A stretch of DNA of 64,000 nt from an uncultured Candidatus Saccharibacteria bacterium (GCA_964552375.1 CAZKFX010000001.1:3929-67928), one strand, 5' to 3'; shown: positions 60 through 50,675, counted from the stretch's first letter. The notes: generated from the letters alone by a model not told the origin. Made by a program: numbers and translations.

Positions 60-2183
60 TTGCATTGGGATGGTTGGTGGAATGAATTTTTAACCTGGTG
101 TACTATTGGTTTTTTTGGAGCTTTCTTTTTAATGCAAGCTAACACTCTTTTTAGACTTCATATTACCGGAAGTTCAATCACAGGAGATGCAGGAATTTTA
201 GGAGATATCATTCTCTACTTTTTGCCTATTTTATTTTTATTAATTGGATTTTTCCTTGCTCTTCAAACCGCCCAGGCAGTAGCAGCTGTAGCAATGTTAG
301 CAGGAGGAGCATTAATGGCAGGAATGGCATTAAAATCATTTGGAAAAAAAATGGCATTGAGGTCAAGTGCAAAAAAGAAAAAATTAGAACAAAAAATGGC
401 AAGAGGAGAATCACTATCAACAAAAGAAAAAGCAGAATTAGCCTTGGCTAAAGTTGGGGAGGCTCCTGCGGTCTTTTATTATGGAATAAGAAAGAGGATA
501 CCCTTTATGAAAAAAGAGACCTGGGGGGATGTAGAAAAAGCACATAGAATGGAAACGAGAAAAGAATTAGAAGGAAAATCTATGGAGAATTTAGCAGAAA
601 CTTATAAAGATAAAACTCAAAGTGAAACTAGAAGACAAGAAGCTGCTTTACATTTAATGAAAAGAGGACGGAAAGGAATTGAAAAATTAAAGGGGGCCGG
701 AGCCACAGATGAAGAAATAGCAAGTTATATGCAAATGGCAGCCAGTGAAGGAAGATGGGAAGACGCTCAATGGTTTGGAACTTTCTTAATAGAAAAGCAT
801 AAAGGAAAGATTGAGGAAGTTAATAAATACTTTGAAGGAATTTTTGATAAAGAAGATAAAGAAAAAATAGCAGCGAGGCTTTCTACTCAAGAAGGAAAAG
901 AAGGAGAGAGGTTAAGAAAATTGGAAGAACACTACAACAACAAAGAAATTGGGGAAGAAGAATACAAAAAGAAAAAAGAAGAAATAGTGAATGAGTATTT
1001 AAAAGAGCATGCTAGTGAGGAATTTTTAGGAATTCTTTCGCCAGAAATATTGGCTTCTGGAATTACTATAACTACTGCCCAACAAAAGGAATTAGCTGAA
1101 GCTCTGGCTAAAATAGATTCTCCTTTGCATGTCCAGGCTCTTGCTAGTCAATTTGGAACCGCATTTACTCATAATTTGCAACAGTATTTAGAAGAACACG
1201 TTGATGAAGTTGGAAAAAATCTAAATACTTATCTTAGAAGCACTCCTGCCCAAGCCTTAGGTTTAAGGCTACCTCAAAAACTTCAAGAATTAGAAGCTTC
1301 AATTGATATGCGATTAGAAAGAGCAATAGAAGAAAAAGAAAATGCTTTACAAGCATTAGTCGTTACAAAAAGAGAGTTATCTTCAATCCAAGATCCGGCA
1401 AGAAAAAGAGAACTTCAAGCTAAAATAAAAGAGCTTGAAAAAACTTATGGCACCGAAGAAGAGATTCAAAAACAGATAAAAGCATTAACTGCTACTCGAG
1501 TCAATTTACACAAAATGAGCGGAAGAGAACTAATAGATTTAGGAAAGTTGCACGGTGTAGAAATAGAATTACCAAAAGAGGAAGAAGAAAAAGTAACAAT
1601 AAAAGGAGGAGAGGAAACAAAAAGACAACCTTCTTCAACTTCTTTCACTCCAACTCCTCCAGTTTCTCCTCCGCCTTCATCTGAAGAAAGAACACCTCCT
1701 CCAACTAAACCGGCACCAAGACCAACTACTACTCAAAGAATTAAAGAAATAGAAAAAGAGATAAAAGAGTTAGAAAGGGTAAAAAGCCAAATTAAAAGAT
1801 TACAAGACGAAAAAGAGGCTGTTTTAAGAGCTCCTCACATTTCACCTGAAGATAAGAAAAAAAGAAAAATGAAATTGGATGCTCAGATTTCTAAAATTTT
1901 AAAACCAACTGGAATTGAAAAACCAGAAGATTTGGAGGGAAAAATAAAAGAAATGGAAGAAAAAAGACAAAAGCTGATTGAGAGGGAAATAGAAATAAGA
2001 AATAAAATAAAGGAAATGAAAGATTTATCTTCATTAGATATCCAAAAAGAAATAGACAAAATAGAAAAAGAGCTAAGTGAAACATCAGAAAGAGAAATTG
2101 AAAAAAGAGAAAGATTAAAAGAGTTAAAAGAGAGATTAAAAGAACTAAAAGAAAGAAAAGAAAGAGTAGAAAGGCAAGCTTAA
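60..2183 (+). CDS. Membrane-anchored coiled-coil protein (2-3 N-terminal TM helices, long K/E-rich coiled coil, Pro/Thr-rich linker). TTG start as called by the ORF track; frame stays open to the window edge, so may be 5'-partial
   Basis: Hydrophobic N-terminus (ILYFLPILFLLIGFFLAL, AAVAMLAGGALMAGMAL); heptad-like K/E-rich body; PTPPVSPPPSSEERTPPPTKPAPRPTTT linker; no in-frame stop between nt 3 and 60. Confidence 0.5.
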   Translation: MHWDGWWNEFLTWCTIGFFGAFFLMQANTLFRLHITGSSITGDAGILGDIILYFLPILFLLIGFFLALQTAQAVAAVAMLAGGALMAGMALKSFGKKMALRSSAKKKKLEQKMARGESLSTKEKAELALAKVGEAPAVFYYGIRKRIPFMKKETWGDVEKAHRMETRKELEGKSMENLAETYKDKTQSETRRQEAALHLMKRGRKGIEKLKGAGATDEEIASYMQMAASEGRWEDAQWFGTFLIEKHKGKIEEVNKYFEGIFDKEDKEKIAARLSTQEGKEGERLRKLEEHYNNKEIGEEEYKKKKEEIVNEYLKEHASEEFLGILSPEILASGITITTAQQKELAEALAKIDSPLHVQALASQFGTAFTHNLQQYLEEHVDEVGKNLNTYLRSTPAQALGLRLPQKLQELEASIDMRLERAIEEKENALQALVVTKRELSSIQDPARKRELQAKIKELEKTYGTEEEIQKQIKALTATRVNLHKMSGRELIDLGKLHGVEIELPKEEEEKVTIKGGEETKRQPSSTSFTPTPPVSPPPSSEERTPPPTKPAPRPTTTQRIKEIEKEIKELERVKSQIKRLQDEKEAVLRAPHISPEDKKKRKMKLDAQISKILKPTGIEKPEDLEGKIKEMEEKRQKLIEREIEIRNKIKEMKDLSSLDIQKEIDKIEKELSETSEREIEKRERLKELKERLKELKERKERVERQA

Positions 2184-2244: not shown

Positions 2245-2634
2245 ATGAGAAAATATACGCCAGAAGATGCCTGGAGAGCTTATGAACAATTGCCCCAAGA
2301 GATAAAGAAAGTAATTTTTTCGGTAGATACCTCCGAGACAATTGAAAAAATTTGTGTTAGAAATAATATAAAAAGAGAAAAAAGCTCTTTGTTAGCAGAA
2401 CAAATAGGATATGTCTTGTTGGGGCTTTTTCCACCAGAGGAATTTAAAGAATGGCTTTATGAAGAATTTGGAAAAGAAAAGGGAAAGTTAATTTCACATG
2501 ATATTTTTAGGTTTATTTTTTTCCCGATAAAAAATGAACTAGAGGAAATTTATAAAACAGAAGTAATTAGTTTGCCAAAAGCTAAAATTTCTCCTCCCCC
2601 AAAAAGAGATATTTATAGAGAACCGATAGAATAA
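2245..2634 (+). CDS. Hypothetical protein
   Basis: Intact ORF in operon context upstream of T4SS-like genes; no recognisable motif. Confidence 0.3.
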   Translation: MRKYTPEDAWRAYEQLPQEIKKVIFSVDTSETIEKICVRNNIKREKSSLLAEQIGYVLLGLFPPEEFKEWLYEEFGKEKGKLISHDIFRFIFFPIKNELEEIYKTEVISLPKAKISPPPKRDIYREPIE

Positions 2635-2636
2635 AA

Positions 2637-3053
2637 ATGCCCTTTATTGTTCCTAAGTTTATTGAAAAAGAAGCAAAAATTGTAGGTCCTTTGACTTTCA
2701 GACAATTTGGCTTTTTCCTTTTTGCGGGTGTCATTGCTTTTTTCTTGTATTTTACAATTGGCAAAAAAAATCTTCCTTTGTTTTTGATAATTATAGGACC
2801 AGTAATAGCTATAGCAATGATTTTTGCATTTGGAAAGGTAGAAGGGAGAGATTTTCCAGTTTTTTTAAAAAATTTTTTGTCCCACCAACAATCTCCAAAA
2901 ATGTTTTATTTTCAAAAAAAGACAATAGCTCCTGAAATTTTGCATTTTAAAATTAAAAAAGGAGAAGAAGAAAAAAAAGAAATGGAGCCTGCAAAAGGTT
3001 TTACAAAAACAAGTTTGCAAAAAATGTTTGTTGAAATTGAAACCAAAAAATAG
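2637..3053 (+). CDS. VirB3/PrgI-like small two-TM protein (T4SS inner-membrane component candidate)
   Basis: N-terminal ...KIVGPLTFRQFGFFLFAGVIAFFLYF.. plus a second TM helix; sits immediately upstream of the VirB4 homologue, as in Gram-positive type-IV systems. Confidence 0.45.
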   Translation: MPFIVPKFIEKEAKIVGPLTFRQFGFFLFAGVIAFFLYFTIGKKNLPLFLIIIGPVIAIAMIFAFGKVEGRDFPVFLKNFLSHQQSPKMFYFQKKTIAPEILHFKIKKGEEEKKEMEPAKGFTKTSLQKMFVEIETKK

Positions 3054-3059
3054 CATTTT

Positions 3060-3689
3060 ATGGCAAAAGCTCCCAGTCAGCAATTTTTAGAGATAAAACA
3101 AATTAGAGATGGAGTGATGATATTGAAAGACGGAAGTTTAAGAAAGATTTTGGCTGTTTCTTCTTTAAATTTGGCAGTGAAGTCTAAAGAAGAACAAGAA
3201 GCCATTTTTTATCAATTTCAAAATTTCTTAAATTCTTTAGATTTTTTCTGTCAAATAATTGTTCAATCTCAAAGATTAAATATTACAGGATATCTAGAAG
3301 AATTAGAAAAATTAGAACAAAAACAACCAAATGAACTTTTAAAATTCCAAACTAGAAATTATCGCCAGTTTATCCAAAAATTAGTAGCTACAGGAACGAT
3401 TATGAATAAAAATTTCTTTTTGGTAGTTCCCTTTTATATGTCAGAACTTAAAGAAGTAATTCCCTCAAAAAAGGCAGGCAAAGGAGAGATGGCAGAACTT
3501 AAATTTCAATTGGCAAAAAATCAACTTGAACAAAGAGCTGAATTTTTAATATTAGGTTTAAGGAGGTGTGGTTTAAATGCAGCTCCCCTAAATAGTGAGC
3601 AATTAATTGAGCTTTTGTGGAATTTTTATCATCCAAAAGAAGCAGAAATGGGATATTATCCTTCTATTCCTTCTGAAATAATAAAATAA
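3060..3689 (+). CDS. VirB4/TraC-family protein, N-terminal domain (separate ORF)
   Basis: IRDGVMILKDGSLRKILAVSSLNLAVKSKEEQEAIFYQFQNFLNSL resembles the N-terminal region of PrgJ/TcpF/VirB4 proteins; ends TAA at 3687-3689, 1 nt before the ATG of the ATPase ORF. Confidence 0.5.
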   Translation: MAKAPSQQFLEIKQIRDGVMILKDGSLRKILAVSSLNLAVKSKEEQEAIFYQFQNFLNSLDFFCQIIVQSQRLNITGYLEELEKLEQKQPNELLKFQTRNYRQFIQKLVATGTIMNKNFFLVVPFYMSELKEVIPSKKAGKGEMAELKFQLAKNQLEQRAEFLILGLRRCGLNAAPLNSEQLIELLWNFYHPKEAEMGYYPSIPSEIIK

Positions 3690-3690
3690 A

Positions 3691-5538
3691 ATGAAGCTTC
3701 AAATTGCTAAAATTTTAAATAAATTTTTAAAAAGGAAAAAGCAAGCAAAAAAGTTAACTCTTCCTGTAGGAAAAGAGGAAGAATTAAAATTAGCAGATTT
3801 TATTGCCCCTCCCTCAGTTAAAATATTCCCAAATTATATCCAATTAGGAGAAAGATTAGCTAAAAGTTATTTTGTCTTTTCTTATCCTCGTTATTTAACT
3901 GCTGCCTGGGTCGCTCCTGTTATAAATTTAGATGTTCCTCTTTTAATGTCTTTTTTTATTCATCCTACCGATACAGGCTATATTTTAAAGAAACTCCAAA
4001 AAAGACTTACTGAAGTTCAGGCAGAAATTGCAGAAAGAGAAGAAAAAGGATTAATTAGAGATCCAACTTTGGAGACAGCTTATAAAGACATTGAGGAATT
4101 AAGAGATAAACTTCAGACAGGGCAAGAGAGAATGTTTAGATTTGGTCTTTATTTGACTGCTTTTGGAGATAGTGAAAGAGAATTAAAAGAGGTTGAAACT
4201 ACTTTAAGATCAATCTTGGAAGCAAAATTAGTCTACATTAAACCTTGTCTTTATCAGCAAAAACAAGGACTTCACTCTTGTTTTCCTTACGGTTTAGATC
4301 AATTAATGACTCATCATTTAATGAATACTTCTACCCTTTCAAGTATTTTTCCTTTTGTCTCTTTTGATTTAAGTGCAAATGAAGGAATTCTCTATGGGAT
4401 TAATCAACACAACAAATCTTTGGTTTTATTCAATAGATTTAGTTTAGAAAATGCTAATATGGTTGTCTTTGCAAAATCAGGTTCTGGTAAAAGTTATGCT
4501 GTCAAATTAGAAACCTTAAGACTGTTAATGACTGGTGTAGAAGTAATTATTATTGATCCTGAAAATGAATATAAACCCTTAGCAGAAGCTGTTGGAGGTT
4601 CTTTTATTAATATTTCTCTAAGTTCTCCCCATCATATTAATCCTTTTGATTTGCCAGAAAAATTAAGGCCAGATGAAAACCCAGAAGATGTTTTGCGTTC
4701 AAATATTATTAATCTGGTAGGTTTGATGCGTTTAATGTTAGGTGGATTAACCCCTGAAGAAGATGCAATAATGGATAGGGCTTTAACTGAGACTTATGCT
4801 GCAAAAGATATTACTCCAGAAACCAATCCTTCAACCTGGAAAGATAATACTCCCTTAATGGAGGATTTAGAAAGTGTTTTAGAAGGAATGGAGGGGGCAG
4901 AATCAATTTTGAAAAGATTGAGAAAATTCACCAAAGGAACTTATGCTCAATTTTTCAACCAACCTACTAATGTATCTTTGGATAAACCATTAATAGTCTT
5001 TGGAATTAGAGATTTAGAAGATGAATTAAGACCAATGGCAATGTTTATAATTATGAGATACATTTGGAATAAAGTAAGATCAGAACTTAAAAAAAGAATT
5101 TTGGTAGTAGATGAAGCCTGGTGGTTAATGCAATACGAAGACTCAGCTTCATTTTTGTTTGGATTGTGTAAAAGAGGAAGAAAATATGGACTGGGTGTCA
5201 CCACCATTACCCAAGATGTTAATGATTTTATGAAATCTACTTATGGCCAACCAATTATTACTAACTCAGCCTTGCAATTTTTAATGAAACAATCTCCAGC
5301 AACTATTGATGTAGTTCAAAAAGTTTTCAATCTAACTGAAGAAGAAAAGCATTTGCTTTTGGGAGCAGCAGTTGGAGAAGGTCTCTTTTTTGCAGGACCA
5401 AAACATGTTTTTTTAAGAGTAGAGGCTTCCTATGCAGAACATCAAATTATTACAACTTCTCCTGAAGAACTCAAAAAAATTAGAGAGAGAAAAGAAAAAA
5501 TGGAAAAATTAAAAAAAGAAGGAGAGAGAGAAATTTAA
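3691..5538 (+). CDS. virB4: VirB4/TraC/TrbE-family conjugal-transfer-type ATPase (ATPase domain)
   Basis: Walker A FAKSGSGKSYAVK; IIDPENEY; Walker B VVDEAWW; overall VirB4 layout. Confidence 0.8.
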   Translation: MKLQIAKILNKFLKRKKQAKKLTLPVGKEEELKLADFIAPPSVKIFPNYIQLGERLAKSYFVFSYPRYLTAAWVAPVINLDVPLLMSFFIHPTDTGYILKKLQKRLTEVQAEIAEREEKGLIRDPTLETAYKDIEELRDKLQTGQERMFRFGLYLTAFGDSERELKEVETTLRSILEAKLVYIKPCLYQQKQGLHSCFPYGLDQLMTHHLMNTSTLSSIFPFVSFDLSANEGILYGINQHNKSLVLFNRFSLENANMVVFAKSGSGKSYAVKLETLRLLMTGVEVIIIDPENEYKPLAEAVGGSFINISLSSPHHINPFDLPEKLRPDENPEDVLRSNIINLVGLMRLMLGGLTPEEDAIMDRALTETYAAKDITPETNPSTWKDNTPLMEDLESVLEGMEGAESILKRLRKFTKGTYAQFFNQPTNVSLDKPLIVFGIRDLEDELRPMAMFIIMRYIWNKVRSELKKRILVVDEAWWLMQYEDSASFLFGLCKRGRKYGLGVTTITQDVNDFMKSTYGQPIITNSALQFLMKQSPATIDVVQKVFNLTEEEKHLLLGAAVGEGLFFAGPKHVFLRVEASYAEHQIITTSPEELKKIRERKEKMEKLKKEGEREI

Positions 5539-19513: not shown

Positions 19514-20068
19514 CTACCATCTTGCATTGTGAATTTTGAGCCAAAAACCTATTCTGTTTACTATTACGTGTAAAAAGAAAGTTGCTACTAAAATAAAAAG
19601 CCAAATTTTGATTTCTAATTTTAGCCAAGGTTGCAAGAAAATAAAAGCTCCAATTACATAATTTATCTGATCAAAAGGTAAAAATTTTGCTCCAGGTTTC
19701 AAATTTAATCTTCTTTTAATAAAGGCAAATAAAAGATCACCAAAGATTGCTCCCCCCGAAATTAAAAAGCCAAAAAAGAAAAGATTGATTGTTTCATAAT
19801 TTAAAATTGAAATTTTTTTAAAAAAAGAAAATTGATAAAGAAAAAACTGAATTAAAACCACGATTTCACCAACCAAAATTCCCAAAATTGCTCCTCGCCA
19901 GGTTTTATGAGAGCCAAAAATTGGCTTTCCTAAAAATTTTTTTTTAAAATCTATTTGTTTGGCTAAAAAATTAAAAAGATTAAATTTCTTTGCCAAAGGA
20001 GGAGTCATATTAGTAAAATAAGCTGGTAAAAAAAAGTAAAGACAAGATAAAATAAATTCAAAAGTCAT
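19514..20068 (-). CDS. CDP-archaeol synthase (CarS/DUF46)-like polytopic membrane protein
   Basis: FLPAYFTN and GSHKTWRGAILG resemble the CarS LLPAYFAN / GDGKTWRG motifs; 5-6 TM helices. Confidence 0.55.
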   Translation of the reverse strand: MTFEFILSCLYFFLPAYFTNMTPPLAKKFNLFNFLAKQIDFKKKFLGKPIFGSHKTWRGAILGILVGEIVVLIQFFLYQFSFFKKISILNYETINLFFFGFLISGGAIFGDLLFAFIKRRLNLKPGAKFLPFDQINYVIGAFIFLQPWLKLEIKIWLFILVATFFLHVIVNRIGFWLKIHNARW

Positions 20069-23192: not shown

Positions 23193-23747
23193 ATGAGAAA
23201 AATTTTTCTCTTTCTCTTTATTTTGAAAATTTTATTTTTTCCTTTAATTTGTCAGGGAAAATTGAGGTATTATGAGGCATGTGAGAGTGTCTCAAGTGGA
23301 GTTTGTATGACTCCTACTTATACCGTTTGTTATGATGGTTTGGTGCCATGCGGAAAAGATGTTTGGTATGCTCAAGGATCTCATCCAGATTGTCCTACTT
23401 CCTCGCTTCCAATGAGTGTTACTACTACTCATTGTCAGCTTTGTCATTTTTTTATTATGTTTAATGGCGCAGTTGATTTTCTCATTTGGGAAATTGTTTT
23501 ACCTTTGGCGGTTTTAATGCTAATTGTAGGAGGAATTTTATATATTTTAGCAATTTTAGAGTTTGTTCCTGGAGGACCCCAGACTGTAAATCAGGCAAAA
23601 CAAGTAATTAGTGCTGTTTTCATTGGTTTATTTATTGTCTTTTCTGCCTGGTTTTTGGTCAATTTATTTTTCACCTTAATTGGAGTAGCTGATTGGACAG
23701 GATTAAAAGAAGGCTGGTTTAAAATTGATTGTCCAGTAGAACTATGA
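23193..23747 (+). CDS. Secreted Cys-rich domain with C-terminal 2-TM 'GG..V..AK..I' hairpin module (paralogue of 47592 and 48642 proteins)
   Basis: Signal-like N-terminus; about 12 Cys; LMLIVGGILYILAILEFVPGGPQTVNQAKQVISAVFIGLFIVF. Confidence 0.4.
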   Translation: MRKIFLFLFILKILFFPLICQGKLRYYEACESVSSGVCMTPTYTVCYDGLVPCGKDVWYAQGSHPDCPTSSLPMSVTTTHCQLCHFFIMFNGAVDFLIWEIVLPLAVLMLIVGGILYILAILEFVPGGPQTVNQAKQVISAVFIGLFIVFSAWFLVNLFFTLIGVADWTGLKEGWFKIDCPVEL

Positions 23748-42292: not shown

Positions 42293-43021
42293 TTATAAAT
42301 TAGCTTTTTGAAGAGATTTAATTATTTTATCTAAGTCTCCTTCTAAAACATCTTCTAAATTGTGCCAGCTTTTTTTTATTCTATGGTCAGTAATTCTGTT
42401 TTGGGGGAAATTATAAGTTCTAATTTTTTCAGCCCTTTCTGAAGAACCTATTTGACTTTTTCTCTGTGTTTGAATTTTTTCTAATTCTTCCCTTTTTTGT
42501 TTTTCTAATAATTTAGCCTCCAAAATAGATAGAGCATTTTCTTTGTTTTGAAACAAACTTCTTTCTGTTTGAGAAGTTACTACTATTCCTGTAGGTAAAT
42601 GGGTAATTCTTATAGCGGTCATTCTTTTGTTTACATATTGGCCTCCAGGCCCTGAGGCTTTATAAGTTTCAATTTTTAATTCATTAGGATTAATTTTAAT
42701 TTCTGCTTTTTTTGGTTTTGGTAAAACAACTACCGAAGCAGTAGAAGTATGAATTCTTCCTGATTTTTCTGTAATAGGAATTCTTTGGACTCTATGGACT
42801 CCTCCTTCATATTTTAGCTGTGAAAAAGCATTTTCTCCTTCAACCTCAAAAACAATTTTTTTAATTCCATTCAAATCACTATAGTGACAATCTAAGACTT
42901 TTAGTTTCCAGTTTTTCTTTTGACAAAATTTAGAGTACATTCTAAAAAGATCTCTTGCAAACAGAGAAGCTTCCTCTCCACCGGCCCCCGCTCTTATTTC
43001 TAAAATTACTTTTTCTTTCAT
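42293..43021 (-). CDS. prfA: Peptide chain release factor, RF1-type (PxT motif), lacking N-terminal domain 1
   Basis: GGQ motif [10 protein letters not shown]; codon-recognition PIT tripeptide in [17 protein letters not shown]; starts at the position equivalent to about residue 113 of E. coli RF1; start overlaps the rpmE stop (ATGA). Confidence 0.75.
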
Positions 43022-43239
43022 TTCTCTCTGAGTTTTTTTGATTTGGCTAATTTTTGCTTAAATTTTTCTACTCTTCCCATCGTATCTACAATTTTTTCTT
43101 TTCCAGTATAAAAAGGATGGCAAGCAGAACAAATTTCTACCTTAATAAATTCTTTTGTAGAACCCACAAAAAAAGTATTTCCACACGCACATTCTACCTT
43201 AGCCTTTGGATAATATTTTGGATGAATTCCCTTTTTCAT
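43018..43239 (-). CDS. rpmE: 50S ribosomal protein L31
   Basis: [10 protein letters not shown] ... CACGN ... [10 protein letters not shown]. Confidence 0.9.
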
Positions 43240-44863: not shown

Positions 44864-45706
44864 TTAAGTTTTATTTTTTTGTTTTCTTTTTCTATAAAGA
44901 ACTAAAATCACAAACAAAAGTACAAAAATTAATATTCCCAAAATTATTGCTCCAATTTTCAAAAAAACCATTATTTTTGGTTTTCTTTCTTTTGGCGAAA
45001 GACAATCTAAATCTTCATTTGCAAGACAATCTGGATCACAAATTCCATCTATTGCTCTATCACAATAGTTATCTTTTCCTCCAGAAGGACAATCTTGAGG
45101 GCAATTTTTATAATTTTCTCCTTTTTCACATTTTCCATTAGAGCAAACAGCTACTTTTTGGCAGTCTGGATCTTCTTTCTTAATACAATCTGGATCACAT
45201 ATTCCGTCTTTTACTTTATCACAATATCCATCAGCGCCCCCAGAAGGACAGTCTTTTGGACAGTTTTTATAATTTTCACCCAGGACACATTTTCCGTCTC
45301 CGCAAACTCCTTCTTTTAATTCCAATTGCATTAATTTTGTCACCTCAATTTCTCTGTTGTCAGGCAAAATACAGACAGCACATTTTGGAGAAAGCAAATG
45401 AGCACATTTTTTTCTATCTTTAATGGTTTTCATTTCATAACCCTTTTTTGTACAAAAACTATATTCTTTTCCACACTCTCCCCATAAGAACTTCCAGGCA
45501 ACACAACTTTTTTTATTGGGAAAAACACAAATACCATATTGATTTCCTTTTTCGTCGGTTTTAATTTGATAATCATACCCCAATTTATAACAATAAAGAG
45601 CAGCTGGATTTTTTAGAGCTAAAACTTTAGAGAAAATGAAAATTCCCACAAAAAGGAATAAAAAAATGGAAAAATTTTTTATTTTTTTCATATTCATAAT
45701 ATTCAT
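44864..45706 (-). CDS. Cys-rich tandem-repeat surface protein with C-terminal TM anchor
   Basis: Signal peptide; two about 48-aa repeats CxxGKCxxGENYKNCPxDCPSGGxDxYCDxxxDGICDPDCxxxEDxDC; C-terminal hydrophobic helix + KRKQKNKT. Confidence 0.5.
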   Translation of the reverse strand: MNIMNMKKIKNFSIFLFLFVGIFIFSKVLALKNPAALYCYKLGYDYQIKTDEKGNQYGICVFPNKKSCVAWKFLWGECGKEYSFCTKKGYEMKTIKDRKKCAHLLSPKCAVCILPDNREIEVTKLMQLELKEGVCGDGKCVLGENYKNCPKDCPSGGADGYCDKVKDGICDPDCIKKEDPDCQKVAVCSNGKCEKGENYKNCPQDCPSGGKDNYCDRAIDGICDPDCLANEDLDCLSPKERKPKIMVFLKIGAIILGILIFVLLFVILVLYRKRKQKNKT

Positions 45707-45726: not shown

Positions 45727-47595
45727 TTAAGGCGGAGGAATTATTCCTTCTCCATAATCTCCTGACATATGAGTACCCAAAAGACAAGTGTCAAAATCAA
45801 AACTTTCATATCCATCAAAGCAAGGATCACCAGGAATTCCTCCCCAGCTATTTTTTAAAATCCAATATCTTTTAACATTATTATACCCTACCAATACCAT
45901 TGCATGATTGGCACCTGGCAGACATTTGTAAATATCACACCCATCATCATCCAAACTTCCTGTGGTTCCCCCTCCAACACCAACCTTTACATACAAGGGC
46001 CCATATTTAATTAAACCATATTGAAGTTCCCCTCTGTTGTTTAAAATTTTTGGGGTGACACTATCAGTATTGGTTATTTTCCATAGCTCAATTGGACTAG
46101 CATCATCACAAGTTGCTGGACAAGGAGAATCAGTTTGCAAATAACCATAGCAATCTTCTGTTGGCACACCATTTGTCTTAATAAAATTGAAAGCACAATT
46201 TCCACCATTACAATCTCCAATAGGACAACAATCTGAAATTAAATACTGTTCAGACAAATCAGGCGTTAAAGAGCTGTCTCCTTTTTCTATTTTATATTTT
46301 GCTTCCATACTTCCTATAGTTGCAAAAGCCCAACAAGCTCCACAAGCTCCTTGATTTTTTACTGGGGTCATCCAATTTTCTCCATTTACATTTCTCCAGT
46401 CCCAAAATTGAGGAGGAATGTGAATAGTGATAGTGTCTGTAGCTACTACTCCTGAGGCGTCAGTTACCTTTAATGTAATAATATGGTCTATTACTGTTGA
46501 AGTAGCAACTCCAGTTAAATCATTTTTAACAAAACTACTAGAAGCGCCAATAACTCCATCTATATTAGAAGTCCATTCTATAGTATAAGGAAGAGTACCT
46601 CCTGTAATTAAGGCTTGAAAATTTATTGGGTCTCCTTGGGCAAAAGCAGTATCATCAGGAGGAGAGGAAATAGTCGCAGTTAAAAAAGGAGGATTAACCT
46701 TTACCTGAGCAGAAGCAACAGCTGTTTTTCCACAATTGTCAGTTACGCGCAAAAGAGGATGATAAGTGCCAGGAATATTGTAAATATAAGTGGTGATTCC
46801 AGAAATGAAGCTTTGCCAGTCAAAAATACCATCTCCTTCAAAATCCCATTCATATTTCACTATTTGACCTTGTCCTGGGGGTGGATCAAAAGAATAGGTG
46901 CTTCCATCAAAATAAACTGTTTCACCTGCTACTACAACAACACTTAGAGCAGTTGGAGAAGGATTTTTTCCTACTCTTGGTTTGGGGACAGGAGGAAGGT
47001 CTTGAATGCAATCTGTTCCTGTCCAACAATAACCTGAATCACAGGCATAACAATTTTCTCCTGCTCCACAACAAACACCTCCAGTGATATGAGAATTGGA
47101 AGGAGAGAAAGTTAGACATCCTGGTATGGCACTACAGGTTGGAGTGCAACCAGAGGAGGTTATTTTAAAATTAGCCACATTTTCTGTTTCGGTGGCAAAT
47201 CCCAAAATATCTTTTGCTTTAATATCAATATAATAATTACCAACAGGAGCACCACTTGAGTCCCAACTATTTCCATATTTTCCATCATTAGCTAAATCAT
47301 CGTTATGAGATCCATCATCATAAAGCTGAACAGTTGCTATATTTGTTTCGTCTGGATTTTGTAAAAAAGCAACAACTGAACTGACTCCAGAGATATCTGT
47401 TACTTTAGCATTAATAATAAAAGTAGCTCCTTGGTCTGCGCTTGAAGGTGAAACACTTACATCAGAAACTGTTGGATAAGGTTGATTTGCTATTTCCAAA
47501 GAAGGTTTTTGAGAAAAAGAAATTTTTATACAAAAAATTCCAAAAATGATTAAAATTAAAAATAACAAAGGAAAAAATTTACTTTTTTTCATCAT
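45727..47595 (-). CDS. Secreted multidomain papain-like (C1) cysteine peptidase with N-terminal beta-sandwich, Cys-rich and PKD-like domains
   Basis: NQGACGACWAFAT (active-site Cys), NHAMVLVGY (His), ILKNSWG (Asn); PKD-like YEWDFEGDG; signal peptide. Confidence 0.7.
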   Translation of the reverse strand: MMKKSKFFPLLFLILIIFGIFCIKISFSQKPSLEIANQPYPTVSDVSVSPSSADQGATFIINAKVTDISGVSSVVAFLQNPDETNIATVQLYDDGSHNDDLANDGKYGNSWDSSGAPVGNYYIDIKAKDILGFATETENVANFKITSSGCTPTCSAIPGCLTFSPSNSHITGGVCCGAGENCYACDSGYCWTGTDCIQDLPPVPKPRVGKNPSPTALSVVVVAGETVYFDGSTYSFDPPPGQGQIVKYEWDFEGDGIFDWQSFISGITTYIYNIPGTYHPLLRVTDNCGKTAVASAQVKVNPPFLTATISSPPDDTAFAQGDPINFQALITGGTLPYTIEWTSNIDGVIGASSSFVKNDLTGVATSTVIDHIITLKVTDASGVVATDTITIHIPPQFWDWRNVNGENWMTPVKNQGACGACWAFATIGSMEAKYKIEKGDSSLTPDLSEQYLISDCCPIGDCNGGNCAFNFIKTNGVPTEDCYGYLQTDSPCPATCDDASPIELWKITNTDSVTPKILNNRGELQYGLIKYGPLYVKVGVGGGTTGSLDDDGCDIYKCLPGANHAMVLVGYNNVKRYWILKNSWGGIPGDPCFDGYESFDFDTCLLGTHMSGDYGEGIIPPP

Positions 47596-48503
47596 ATATT
47601 ATCTAATTTACTACAATTTCCCCAATTATCACAAGCTTTAATATCTACATAATAGGGGCCTTCAGGAAAAGAAGCAGAATTCCAGACATTTCCAAAAATA
47701 CTGTCAGAACTTGAGACATCACTGTGGAGTCCATCGTCAAACAATTCTATTATTTCAAGAACAGTATTGTCAGGTCTCTGCAAAAGAGCATAAGCAGACG
47801 CAATAGGGTTGGCATCGGTTATTTTGACTCTAATTTCAAACAATGTTCCTTGAGGTGCAGAAATAGGAGTAATGTGAGTATTTGTAATATTAGGAGGAGT
47901 AGTGTCTATAAAACCAAAACCGAGAGCTACAAAACATGCAGGACATCCTACTGCTGACCCACAGTCTACATGGGTTTCTCCACAATCTTTTACACCATCT
48001 GAACAATGGTTACAATTTTGGCAATACAAAGAAGAAGGATTGCTGACATCTTCAAAAATCCAGACACCCCCATTACAATAAAGCTGAAGGGATAAATCAC
48101 AATCTCCAGGAGTACAAGTTAATCCAGCAGTAGTCATTGTGCCAGTAGAAGGAGCGACACCAAACAATTTACCACTTATGTTAATTACTACCTTTATAGA
48201 AGAAACAATAAAAATTCCTATTGTAGCCACCAGTATTAATTCTTTTGCTTTTTCAACTCTTTCTGGATTTCCACCAGACATTAAAAGAAAAAAAGCAGCA
48301 CCAATTAAAAGAAAAGTTCCAACAATTACTCCTACCCAAAACAAAAAATTAGTAAAAGTAGAGACCAATTTTTGCCAAATAGGATAAGCACTTGGCCTTT
48401 TTATTACTATAGAAAAGGCTGAAAGAAAAAAGGGCAAAAATAGTAAAAATAACAAAAAATAAAGAAAAAATCTTTTTGAGAAGGTTTTAAAAATGGAAAG
48501 CAT
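47592..48503 (-). CDS. Membrane protein: N-terminal TM + 2-TM 'GG..V..AK..I' module, C-terminal beta-sandwich domain homologous to the N-terminal domain of the 45727 protease
   Basis: FLLIGAAFFLLMSGGNPERVEKAKELILVATIGIFIV; the C-terminal ISAPQGTLFEIRVKITD...LFDDGLHSD...GNVWNS...YYVDIKACD aligns with the protease's N-terminal domain. Confidence 0.45.
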   Translation of the reverse strand: MLSIFKTFSKRFFLYFLLFLLFLPFFLSAFSIVIKRPSAYPIWQKLVSTFTNFLFWVGVIVGTFLLIGAAFFLLMSGGNPERVEKAKELILVATIGIFIVSSIKVVINISGKLFGVAPSTGTMTTAGLTCTPGDCDLSLQLYCNGGVWIFEDVSNPSSLYCQNCNHCSDGVKDCGETHVDCGSAVGCPACFVALGFGFIDTTPPNITNTHITPISAPQGTLFEIRVKITDANPIASAYALLQRPDNTVLEIIELFDDGLHSDVSSSDSIFGNVWNSASFPEGPYYVDIKACDNWGNCSKLDNI

Positions 48504-48641
48504 AAAATTATTTTTTAAATTTTATCATTATCTTGGAAAGATTGCAAGAATAATTGATGTTGACAAAATTGAAAACATTTTTTATTTTTTAAATATAAAA
48601 AAGGTCGTAGGAAAAGGTCGCAAAATAAAAATTAAAAAGAT

Positions 48642-49172
48642 ATGAAAAAAGGAATTGCTATTTTAGGAACAATTTGTCTTTTGGGAGTTTTAATTTTGCC
48701 AGCAATAAGTGAAGCTGCAAGGACAACGACAAACTGTTGTCAGATTAGAAGGACATTTTCTTTTAATGGAAAGACTTGGTTGTCTGGAAGATGTTATGGA
48801 GAAATAGGAATAGAATATGGTACGACAGCTGTTACTACTACTGCTACAGGATGTGAAACACCAGGAGGAGTTGTACTATGTGAAGCCGCACCAGGACTTG
48901 GAGTGGAGCCAGGTAAAAATGTAGAACAAAGACCTGACTGGGGTGCTGGATGTATGCTAAATAGTGTCTATCGGATTTCAGACTTTATTTTCATGATTTT
49001 GATTGTAGTGGCAGTAATTATTGGTTTGGCAGGAGGTTATAATATTTTGACTGCTGGAGGTGATGCTGAAAAAGTGAACAAAGGAAGAGACTTGATATTG
49101 TATGCTATTATTGGAATGGTAGTAGCTTTCTTTGCAAGAGCTATTCCTTCAATTGTATCTCTGTTGATATAA
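48642..49172 (+). CDS. Secreted Cys/Thr-rich domain with C-terminal 2-TM 'GG..V..AK..I' hairpin module (pilin-like candidate)
   Basis: Signal peptide ..AISEAA; IVVAVIIGLAGGYNILTAGGDAEKVNKGRDLILYAIIGMVVAFF. Confidence 0.4.
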   Translation: MKKGIAILGTICLLGVLILPAISEAARTTTNCCQIRRTFSFNGKTWLSGRCYGEIGIEYGTTAVTTTATGCETPGGVVLCEAAPGLGVEPGKNVEQRPDWGAGCMLNSVYRISDFIFMILIVVAVIIGLAGGYNILTAGGDAEKVNKGRDLILYAIIGMVVAFFARAIPSIVSLLI

Positions 49173-49214: not shown

Positions 49215-50675
49215 TTGATGTTACAAAAGGGAAAAAAAGGTTTTTTTGAATTAAATAAAAATTTGATAATTTTTTTCTTTTTGGGAACATTAGCAGGTTC
49301 CCTTTTTTCTTTTATTTTAATTTCTAAAGCAGAATTTAAAGGGAAAATTGACTATTTTGGAAAAATTGAAATTTTAACTGAAGTTTCACAGTCTATCAAA
49401 TTAGACAATAAAAAATTTAATGAAAAGATTGAGACAAAAACAAAAAAAATTTTTAGTGGCGAAACTGCTTTTTTGGGTGCTCATTATATTAAAAACGAAA
49501 GTGTTCTTCCTAAAAGAATAAAAATAATTACAAATGATAATCCAGAAAATTTAAATTTTTTACCAGTTGAAATGGTTTGGCAGGCAGTTCAAATTACTAC
49601 TGGAAAAACCTACAAAAGAAACCCAAGTGTTTTAAAAGATAGCAGAGGAAATTTGTGGTTATTTTTCTCTCAAGATACATATTTTGGTCAGGAAGGCAAA
49701 GGATGTGATGAAGAGGGCGTCAATTGTGAAAATCATCAATATGAGGGTTATTACATAATTTCTCAAGATCAAGGAATTTCTTTTTCTCAACCTTTCAAAT
49801 TTCCAGAGATTGAAAATTTTCATCCAAAAATAATTTCTCCAATTGAAGATGAAAAGGGAAGAATTTGGGTTTTTCTTTCAGATAGTAAAGGAGAAAAAGG
49901 AATTTATTATTTTATTATCAACAATGGAAAATTCAGTGAGCCAAAAAAATTGGAAATTGTCAAAAATAATGTAGATTTTGTCTCTGTGGCAAAGAAAGAA
50001 AATTTAATTTTTGTAATTTATGAAGATAAAGAAGGTTCAAAAATAGTTTGGACAAAAGATTTTGGTGAAAGCTGGGAAGGGCCTTTTTTAATAGACAAAA
50101 GAGCTTCAAGGGCAAGAGGAATTTTTGCAAAAGATGGAAAATTAAAAATTGTTTGGCAAAACAAAGAAACAAAAAAGGGAATTTATTTGACAGATTGCAA
50201 TTTTGAGAACTCTTTTTTAAATTGTTCCTCCTCTTTGGTTTATCTGGTAGAAGGGTTTGCCACAGAAGATAAAGAGCCCTTTTTATTGCAAGATTCTTTT
50301 TCTAATTTTTGGTTATTTTGGACAGTAAAAGAAGGAAAAGAAAAAGGTAAAATTACTCAATGGATAAATTTTGCTACCTCTTCAGATTTAAAAAAATTTT
50401 CTTTACCAAAAATTTTAATGAAAAGAGAAAATAGATGGAATTTTTCTCCTTTTGCCATAGAAAATAAAAATCAAATCTATCTCTTTTTTGCCTCAGAAAA
50501 CGATAGATATTCCTCTGAAGGAAGGGTAAATTCTAATATTTGGATGGCAAAATTGGGAAAAGAGATTGAAATTGAAATTTTACCAAAAGAGAAAATTGGT
50601 TTTGATGTCGCTTTTATTTTTAGAGAAAATTTAGCACAAAATGATTATTTAACAATTGTTGAAATTAAAAAATAA
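49215..50675 (+). CDS. Membrane-anchored BNR/Asp-box repeat protein (sialidase-like beta-propeller candidate)
   Basis: Asp-boxes SQDQGISF and TKDFGESW; recurring W.F(F/L)S / W.FW strands; N-terminal TM helix. Confidence 0.55.
   Translation: MMLQKGKKGFFELNKNLIIFFFLGTLAGSLFSFILISKAEFKGKIDYFGKIEILTEVSQSIKLDNKKFNEKIETKTKKIFSGETAFLGAHYIKNESVLPKRIKIITNDNPENLNFLPVEMVWQAVQITTGKTYKRNPSVLKDSRGNLWLFFSQDTYFGQEGKGCDEEGVNCENHQYEGYYIISQDQGISFSQPFKFPEIENFHPKIISPIEDEKGRIWVFLSDSKGEKGIYYFIINNGKFSEPKKLEIVKNNVDFVSVAKKENLIFVIYEDKEGSKIVWTKDFGESWEGPFLIDKRASRARGIFAKDGKLKIVWQNKETKKGIYLTDCNFENSFLNCSSSLVYLVEGFATEDKEPFLLQDSFSNFWLFWTVKEGKEKGKITQWINFATSSDLKKFSLPKILMKRENRWNFSPFAIENKNQIYLFFASENDRYSSEGRVNSNIWMAKLGKEIEIEILPKEKIGFDVAFIFRENLAQNDYLTIVEIKK

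Follow-up and report, generated by a model that had tools for sequence, protein, structure and literature searches.

VirB2-like hairpin proteins with cysteine-rich ectodomains in the origin-proximal region of a Minisyncoccales/Nealsonbacteria-like genome

The VirB2-type pilins of type IV secretion systems (T4SSs) each consist of two membrane helices joined by a short charged loop in the cytoplasm; the secretion system pulls them out of the membrane and stacks them on VirB6. Every pilus structure that has been solved has the loop on the lumen side and both termini on the outside, and PrgF from a monoderm system also behaves as a pilus subunit (bioRxiv 10.64898/2025.12.18.695078; PMC12857230). 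Patescibacteria encode a T4SS resembling the mating-pair formation class FATA (MPF-FATA), often located beside dnaA, rnpA and ksgA, an arrangement reported for Paceibacteria; VirB2-like pilins with the domain PF18895 were found in 1,948 assemblies and include arrays of 2-11 divergent pilins (Quinonero-Coronel et al. 2025; PMC12102498). A pilin array is essential in Southlakia epibionticum (PMC10633639), and proteins with T4SS pilin domains are among the most highly expressed unknown genes of Minisyncoccus and Microsyncoccus (PMC10936435). The family has been catalogued and discussed repeatedly (PMC12102498; PMC10633639; PMC12857230; PMC10936435). Here we describe three proteins, A, B and C, that share a two-helix hairpin and are encoded in a stretch of 64,000 nucleotides deposited as an uncultured Candidatus Saccharibacteria bacterium (GCA_964552375.1, CAZKFX010000001.1:3929-67928), referred to below as the window. 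They are almost certainly three divergent paralogues within the Patescibacterial VirB2-like pilin family PF18895, and the best explanation overall, which we consider probable, is that they work as pilins with the T4SS encoded in the same window.

A is a protein of 303 residues, B of 176 residues and C of 184 residues; the three genes and their hairpins are located as follows.

47592..48503, minus strand: protein A, in which a signal-like N-terminus precedes a VirB2-like hairpin and, C-terminal to it, a Cys-rich ectodomain ending in a choice-of-anchor-X-like beta domain
48165..48383, minus strand: hairpin module of A, residues 41-113, delimited by AlphaFold2 (AF2) helices and hhalign; loop GGNPERVEKAK at 48243-48275
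48642..49172, plus strand: protein B, with a predicted signal peptide, an 80-residue N-terminal domain containing 6 Cys and a C-terminal VirB2-like hairpin
48963-49169, plus strand: hairpin of B, residues 108-176; loop at 49056-49088
23193..23747, plus strand: protein C, with a predicted signal peptide, a beta-rich N-domain containing GLVPCG, a hairpin and a C-terminal tail with the conserved Cys180
23439-23681, plus strand: hairpin of C, residues 83-163, with the motif CQLCH where helix 1 begins; loop at 23571-23600

In a 19-residue Kyte-Doolittle scan all three proteins show a hydrophobic stretch resembling a signal at the N-terminus and, on either side of a loop, one hydrophobic helix; the loop is GGNPERVEKAK in A (residues 77-87), GGDAEKVNKGR in B (139-149) and GGPQTVNQAK in C (127-136). 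The AF2 model of C has a mean predicted local distance difference test (pLDDT) score of 86.9 and places the hairpin helices at residues 83-121 and 128-163. In the model of A the helices span residues 41-75 and 80-113 with a pLDDT of 74-93, but the overall pLDDT is 59 and the remainder is poorly modelled; confidence is limited to the hairpin, and the fold search was made with the model of C. Beyond the signal segment every protein contains an even number of cysteines (12 in A, 6 in B and 8 in C), all of which lie outside the hairpin, a distribution that would fit disulfide-bonded extracytoplasmic domains.

The modules of A, B and C are 24-30% identical, and their resemblance is far beyond chance. 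A aligns to B with E=3e-8 across 53 residues in BLASTP, and hhalign matches both A (probability 96.2%, E 2.4e-9) and B (96.1%, E 3.2e-9) to a profile of the homologues of C. A regular expression for the loop, GG-x-(E/Q)-x-V-x-x-(A/G)-(K/R), occurs three times in the six-frame open reading frames (ORFs) of the window compared with a mean of 0.02 in 200 residue shuffles. A hidden Markov model (HMM) of the three modules matches A, B and C alone among 500 six-frame ORFs, the next best having E=0.09, and finds no match in YidC, MgtC, SecE and further membrane proteins of the window. A preliminary description of the window had reported three ORFs containing these loops, each with two transmembrane helices joined by a short GG loop and fused to a different extracellular domain. 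All three are encoded where it placed them, on the strands given and with the peptides it quoted; hydropathy, the AF2 hairpins and the motif count confirm the shared module, and the fused parts do differ, being a C-terminal stretch of 190 residues in A, an N-terminal one of 80 residues in B and a beta-rich N-domain together with a tail in C.

The module belongs to a family with an established name. PF18895, T4SS_pilin, has a gathering cutoff of 26.6 bits, which is passed by C (40.8 bits) and B (31.8 bits); A scores 24.3 bits at full length and passes only as an isolated module (27.1 bits). The homologues of C (n=102) are mostly annotated with PF18895 and some carry the name 'pilin' or 'type IV secretory pathway VirB2 component (pilin)' in Patescibacteria, Parcubacteria and Paceibacterota, and 19 of the 21 homologues of B have the same annotation. 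A word-indexed homologue search with A returned two entries only, A itself and an 82%-identical relative annotated with PF18895 (P0125), and it gave no placement for the ectodomain. B and C are ordinary members of the family; A, also a member, has no annotation, scores at the borderline and carries its ectodomain C-terminally.

When the three-module profile was searched against 1.84 billion cluster representatives it matched 16,372 proteins at E≤1e-3 and 408 at E≤1e-10. From these matches 55 diverse modules were sampled and compared across families, with E≤0.01 taken as a match to PF04956 (TrbC; gathering cutoff 27.9 bits) and to NF045849, the pilin-like family of Mycoplasma integrative and conjugative elements (ICEs; equivalog cutoff 40 bits). 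PF18895 is matched by all 55 modules, TrbC/VirB2 by 24 (best 2.4e-8) and NF045849 by 49 (best 2.7e-13). By these comparisons the module is specific and part of a large known family, with a superfamily-level tie to both diderm and monoderm VirB2-type pilins. B and A themselves score far under the NF045849 cutoff (16.7 bits, E=0.0042 and 12.7 bits, E=0.077, respectively) and C has no match to it, which points to a tie between A/B and the Mbov_0395-type Mycoplasma ICE proteins at superfamily level only. The module is already catalogued and published and hence not new; as a finding in the window it amounts to annotation, contributing three further members of a known family.

The T4SS with which these proteins would work is encoded near the start of the window.

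60..2183, plus strand: membrane protein with a long coiled coil and a Pro-rich tail at the VirB6 position; the ORF runs off the window start
2245..2634, plus strand: conserved 129-residue protein encoded in the T4SS cluster, with the VirB6-position gene before it and prgI after it
2637..3053, plus strand: PrgI family protein, a VirB3-like inner-membrane component (PF12666 PrgI, E=1.7e-11)
3060..3689, plus strand: TrsD-like protein, a separate ORF resembling the N-terminal part of VirB4 (TraC_F_IV profile positions 15-175)
3691..5538, plus strand: VirB4-family T4SS ATPase (P-loop_TraG, E=4.7e-30; AAA_10; TraC_F_IV positions 295-374)

The PrgI, TrsD and VirB4 genes are followed by yidC, rnpA and dnaA. 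The first protein of the cluster has no assignment in a Pfam scan and aligns to a 973-residue homologue in the related locus L002 (3194-6112) from residue 263 of the homologue; it may be VirB6-like, judging from its position only. The 129-residue protein is soluble, has no match in Pfam and has homologues at the same position in 53 of 80 related VirB4 loci, and is best described as an uncharacterised conserved component of the cluster. The TrsD ORF ends one base ahead of the VirB4 start in another frame. A frameshift or sequencing error is ruled out as the cause of this split because locus L003 has the same one (9349-9990 and 9992-11824) and TrsD is a known separate component described for Patescibacteria (PMC12102498). 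VirB4 has 252 relatives in genome contigs, the best 80 of which are 64-85% identical to it; the closest are from Nealsonbacteria, Minisyncoccales and Paceibacterota metagenome-assembled genomes, and two cultured parasites of archaea, Minisyncoccus archaeiphilus and Microsyncoccus archaeolyticus, are among the relatives. The window comes from the vicinity of the replication origin in a Minisyncoccales/Nealsonbacteria-like genome and contains a typical Patescibacterial T4SS core of the kind described in 2023-2025.

The same 80 related loci were surveyed for hairpin ORFs within 10 kb of VirB4, and 54 of them contain at least one. A hairpin ORF on the virB4 strand, starting no more than 1 kb downstream of that gene, is present in 22 of 72 loci, compared with an expectation of 3.8%. 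Most of the hairpin ORFs near VirB4 (71 of 94) have the architecture of A, with the hairpin at about residues 50-130 and then an extension of 100-1,981 residues, and a further 17 resemble B and C in having a large N-terminal part and a C-terminal hairpin. PF18895 is found in 14 of 17 large hairpin ORFs tested, seven of them above the cutoff, and the extensions of these 17 contain no Pfam domain. Fusion of the hairpin to an ectodomain is thereby seen to be the rule in this clade. The preliminary description had guessed at a family-specific module for membrane anchoring or polymerisation, conceivably a pilin-like unit serving a VirB4 system at 2637-5538. The region does encode PrgI/VirB3, TrsD and VirB4, and the guess was correct, supported as it is by PF18895, by the TrbC cross-matches and by the linkage to virB4 in relatives. 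The profile search that it proposed confirmed a specific module and at the same time took away its novelty, the family being known.

The ectodomain of A has a domain in common with a second predicted surface protein, which is encoded directly downstream.

47595..47858, minus strand: residues 216-303 of A, a C-terminal domain with a paralogue in the N-terminal part of the protease encoded downstream
45727..47595, minus strand: papain-family (C1) cysteine protease with a PKD domain, predicted to be secreted (Peptidase_C1, E=2.2e-35, and PKD)

The last 88 residues of A, which form the end of its 12-Cys extension, share 42% identity with residues 53-140 of the protease (E=2e-20). Residues 252-289 of A also match NF041940, choice_anch_X, with 24.7 bits against a cutoff of 25 (E=1.4e-5), in a region that AF2 models with low confidence. 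The start codon of the protease gene overlaps the stop codon of A by 4 nt (ATGA), and the two genes are therefore probably co-transcribed. A and B form a divergent gene pair amid housekeeping genes, and the 138-bp spacer between them contains promoter-like matches on both strands, which are consensus matches only. A DUF333-containing protein (44864-45706, minus strand) comes after the protease and a BNR/sialidase-like protein is encoded at 49215-50675. Together with A, B and the protease these form a small island of predicted surface proteins, the GC content of which is slightly higher at 0.36 compared with about 0.29.

C is encoded directly after ksgA and represents a distinct subfamily. In an alignment of its members (A1) GLVPCG and CxxCH are invariant directly ahead of helix 1, and a Cys close to the C-terminus is near-invariant. 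The four conserved Cys could connect the tail with the N-domain at the outer face, or could coordinate a metal. CxxCH was also considered as a haem c site; it co-varies with two more conserved Cys in an extracytoplasmic segment, and the haem reading is unlikely because disulfides or a metal site explain the motif more simply. In relatives, proteins of 645-858 residues encoded upstream of virB4 end in a module of the C type (GLVPCG...CxxCH-hairpin-Cys), at the following positions.

L026:1534-4107, L056:285-2735, L030:616-3150 and L031:2200-4134: C-type module fusions in relatives

These fusions were found both by the profile used here (E down to 1e-16) and by BLASTP with C. Pfam did not report PF18895 for those in L026, L056 and L030, the three that were checked, and so the Pfam model under-detects the C subfamily in fused form.

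The way in which A, B and C would work with the T4SS can be proposed from the better known pilins. The proteins would be inserted into the membrane by Sec/YidC and their signal peptide would be cut, leaving a hairpin with both the N- and C-terminus outside (N-out/C-out) and the GG...AK loop in the cytoplasm. The T4SS, driven by PrgI, TrsD and VirB4, would then pull the subunits from the membrane pool and stack them on a VirB6-like platform, giving rise to a pilus, or to a short conduit, that is directed at the host cell and has the loop on the lumen side. Every solved conjugative pilus exposes both termini of its subunits; with the same orientation here, B and C would present their N-terminal domains and A its C-terminal domain on the surface, where these could act as variable modules for adhesion or specificity in host contact. 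A may in addition serve to position the papain-like protease, a protein that has a domain in common with it and is probably co-transcribed. Polymerisation of A, B and C into a pilus is plausible.

Several observations weigh against this proposal. The genes for A, B and C lie 18-43 kb from virB4, and linkage of hairpin genes to the T4SS is therefore seen in relatives only. C matches PF04956 weakly (15.7 bits, E=0.018) and A and B do not match it, so that none of the three reaches the TrbC cutoff. Among PDB sequences the C-family profile has VirB2 as its top match, aligned in register, at a non-significant E=0.47; the 55-module profile does not list VirB2 at all and instead matches de novo designed helical proteins via the 'GDpe..AK' loop. 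hhalign gives this latter profile a probability of 4.5% against a VirB2 fragment, and a Foldseek search of the PDB with the C model returned no match at E≤0.001, listing generic long-helix proteins only. As the direct comparisons are non-significant, homology to solved VirB2 rests on the Pfam cross-matches. Moreover the loop has a neutral net charge in A and B and a slightly negative one in C, and without net positive charge the positive-inside rule leaves the topology of the hairpin unfixed. To our knowledge no T4SS pilus, of PF18895 proteins or otherwise, has been seen in any Patescibacterium. Ectodomains of 100-2,000 residues are also hard to pack on every subunit of a VirB2-type filament, for which reason the large fusions may not polymerise.

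In the main rival the hairpin is a mere membrane anchor, a VirB2-derived module that tethers surface proteins such as adhesins or enzymes to the cytoplasmic membrane without extraction by the T4SS or polymerisation. It would apply most readily to A and to the very large fusions of the relatives: extensions of the size present in 71 of the 94 hairpin ORFs are, on geometric grounds, too bulky for each subunit of a filament, A has a domain in common with a secreted protease with which it is probably co-transcribed, and Kuroda et al. regard proteins of this sort as host-adhesion proteins anchored in the membrane (PMC10936435). However, a plain anchor needs no conserved GG...AK loop and yet the module retains the loop and helix pattern of compact pilins, the fusion genes occur directly downstream of virB4 far above chance, and the pilin array of S. 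epibionticum is essential along with the T4SS (PMC10633639), all of which make an anchor alone unlikely. The preliminary description had itself allowed that the motif might be a generic feature of two transmembrane helices and a loop; such a motif would have no common ancestry. Hydrophobic hairpins are indeed common and the PDB searches yield low-complexity helical matches only, but a motif that occurs three times where 0.02 is expected, a three-module HMM that matches no other membrane protein of the window, pairwise and profile E-values of 3e-8 to 2.4e-9 and the recognition of PF18895 in 55 of 55 retrieved modules refute this and leave it next to no probability. Equally negligible is a role as pilins matured by a prepilin peptidase, either of type IV with a class III signal or of the Flp type, although type IV pili are present in Patescibacteria (PMC10633639). 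The N-termini (MLSIFKTFSKRFF..., MKKGIAILGTICLL... and MRKIFLFLFILKIL...), each followed by two helices after the signal, contain neither the class III prepilin motif (G-F/M-T-L-x-E) nor the Flp motif in either of the forms G-A/G-x-x-x-E-Y and G-x-x-x-x-E-Y, just as the preliminary description had read them; the proteins consist of a signal peptide and a two-helix hairpin rather than a single N-terminal helix with a globular head, and they have no Pfam match to pilin N-terminal families, so that this possibility is refuted at the level of sequence. A VirB2-like pilin working with the T4SS is the explanation that we retain as probable for A, B and C.

Hairpins also occur in tandem. Among the 150 best matches to the three-module profile, 116 public proteins contain 2-8 copies per polypeptide (for example P0130, P0131, P0134 and P0137). 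P0130 is composed of 583 residues with seven copies, some of which are near-identical, and P0137 of 820 residues with eight. Gene-calling artefacts were considered and rejected, as the sequences are continuous and contain near-identical in-frame repeats, and the multi-hairpin proteins are probably real. Such tandem arrangements would be topologically allowed because each unit would be N-out/C-out, and they may be pre-linked pilin oligomers. 'Poly-pilins' were not found discussed in the cited literature on Patescibacterial pilins.

A more far-reaching and tentative suggestion, one that we regard as possible and rather less than likely, is that the Minisyncoccales-type VirB2-like hairpin serves as a modular handle by which the T4SS displays ectodomains of 100 to about 2,000 residues at either end. 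The fusions would then be minor or tip subunits of a pilus or be located at the site of host contact, and A would bring the protease there via the shared domain. The match to Mycoplasma ICE proteins, for its part, would mean that the pilin was inherited with the monoderm MPF-FATA system and not borrowed from diderms, a borrowing left open in PMC12102498. Four observations go somewhat beyond the cited papers: the prevalence of fusions near virB4 in this clade, the domain shared by A and the protease, the tandem multi-hairpin proteins and the strength of the Mycoplasma ICE cross-match. Few systems have been shown to be essential to epibiotic Patescibacterial life, and the T4SS with its pilins is one of them. 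The pilin hairpin of the archaea-associated Minisyncoccales and Nealsonbacteria usually carries extracellular domains, which may be at either terminus, and is often encoded right after virB4, a feature little treated in published surveys; if it is true that the T4SS presents these fusions, they are candidate host-recognition or host-degrading factors.

Two further genes of the window deserve mention. A release factor of 242 residues only (42293-43021, minus strand) matches positions 100-194 of the PCRF profile as well as RF-1 from its residue 3, and contains both a PIT (PxT, RF1-type) motif and GGQ. It looks like an N-terminally truncated RF1, and there is no room for domain 1 because rpmE (43018-43239) ends directly upstream. 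A member of the CDP-archaeol synthase family (PF01864, CarS-like; E=4.4e-32) is encoded at 19514-20068 on the minus strand; this is a curious gene for a bacterium, the closest cultured relatives of which are parasites of methanogenic archaea.

Among described systems A, B and C most resemble the Patescibacterial pilin arrays, such as the six-gene array of Southlakia epibionticum ML1 and those of Quinonero-Coronel et al. (2025), with which they share PF18895 and a plan of signal peptide plus hairpin. In both cases there are several divergent paralogues, the mean identity within arrays being 25% (PMC12102498) compared with 24-30% here, and in both the same type of T4SS with PrgI, TrsD and VirB4 is located close to dnaA (PMC12102498). 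Unlike the array pilins, however, A, B and C are not arrayed and are distant from virB4 (18-43 kb), each has an extra Cys-rich ectodomain, and in A this ectodomain is C-terminal and the full-length score falls just below the Pfam cutoff. With the TrbC/VirB2 proteins of diderm T4SSs, for instance A. tumefaciens VirB2 (PDB 8cue/8exh), they have in common a plan of a long signal peptide, two hydrophobic helices and a short loop, whereas canonical VirB2 lacks ectodomains and belongs to diderms and the host of A, B and C is a monoderm; nothing points to cyclisation or lipid binding in A, B and C. PrgF(B2) of Gram-positive conjugative plasmids is likened to them by description, being like them a small two-helix protein of a monoderm, and its charged loop is proposed to line the pilus lumen in an MPF-FATA-type T4SS (ter Beek et al., bioRxiv 10.64898/2025.12.18.695078), a class to which the Patescibacterial VirB4 is related (PMC12102498). 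In contrast to the fusions described here PrgF is a bare, plasmid-borne hairpin that serves DNA transfer, and the Patescibacterial system is usually without a relaxase (PMC12102498). Finally Mbov_0395/MMCAP2_0565, the pilin-like conjugal transfer protein of Mycoplasma ICEs (NF045849), is, as here, a two-helix protein of a monoderm T4SS.

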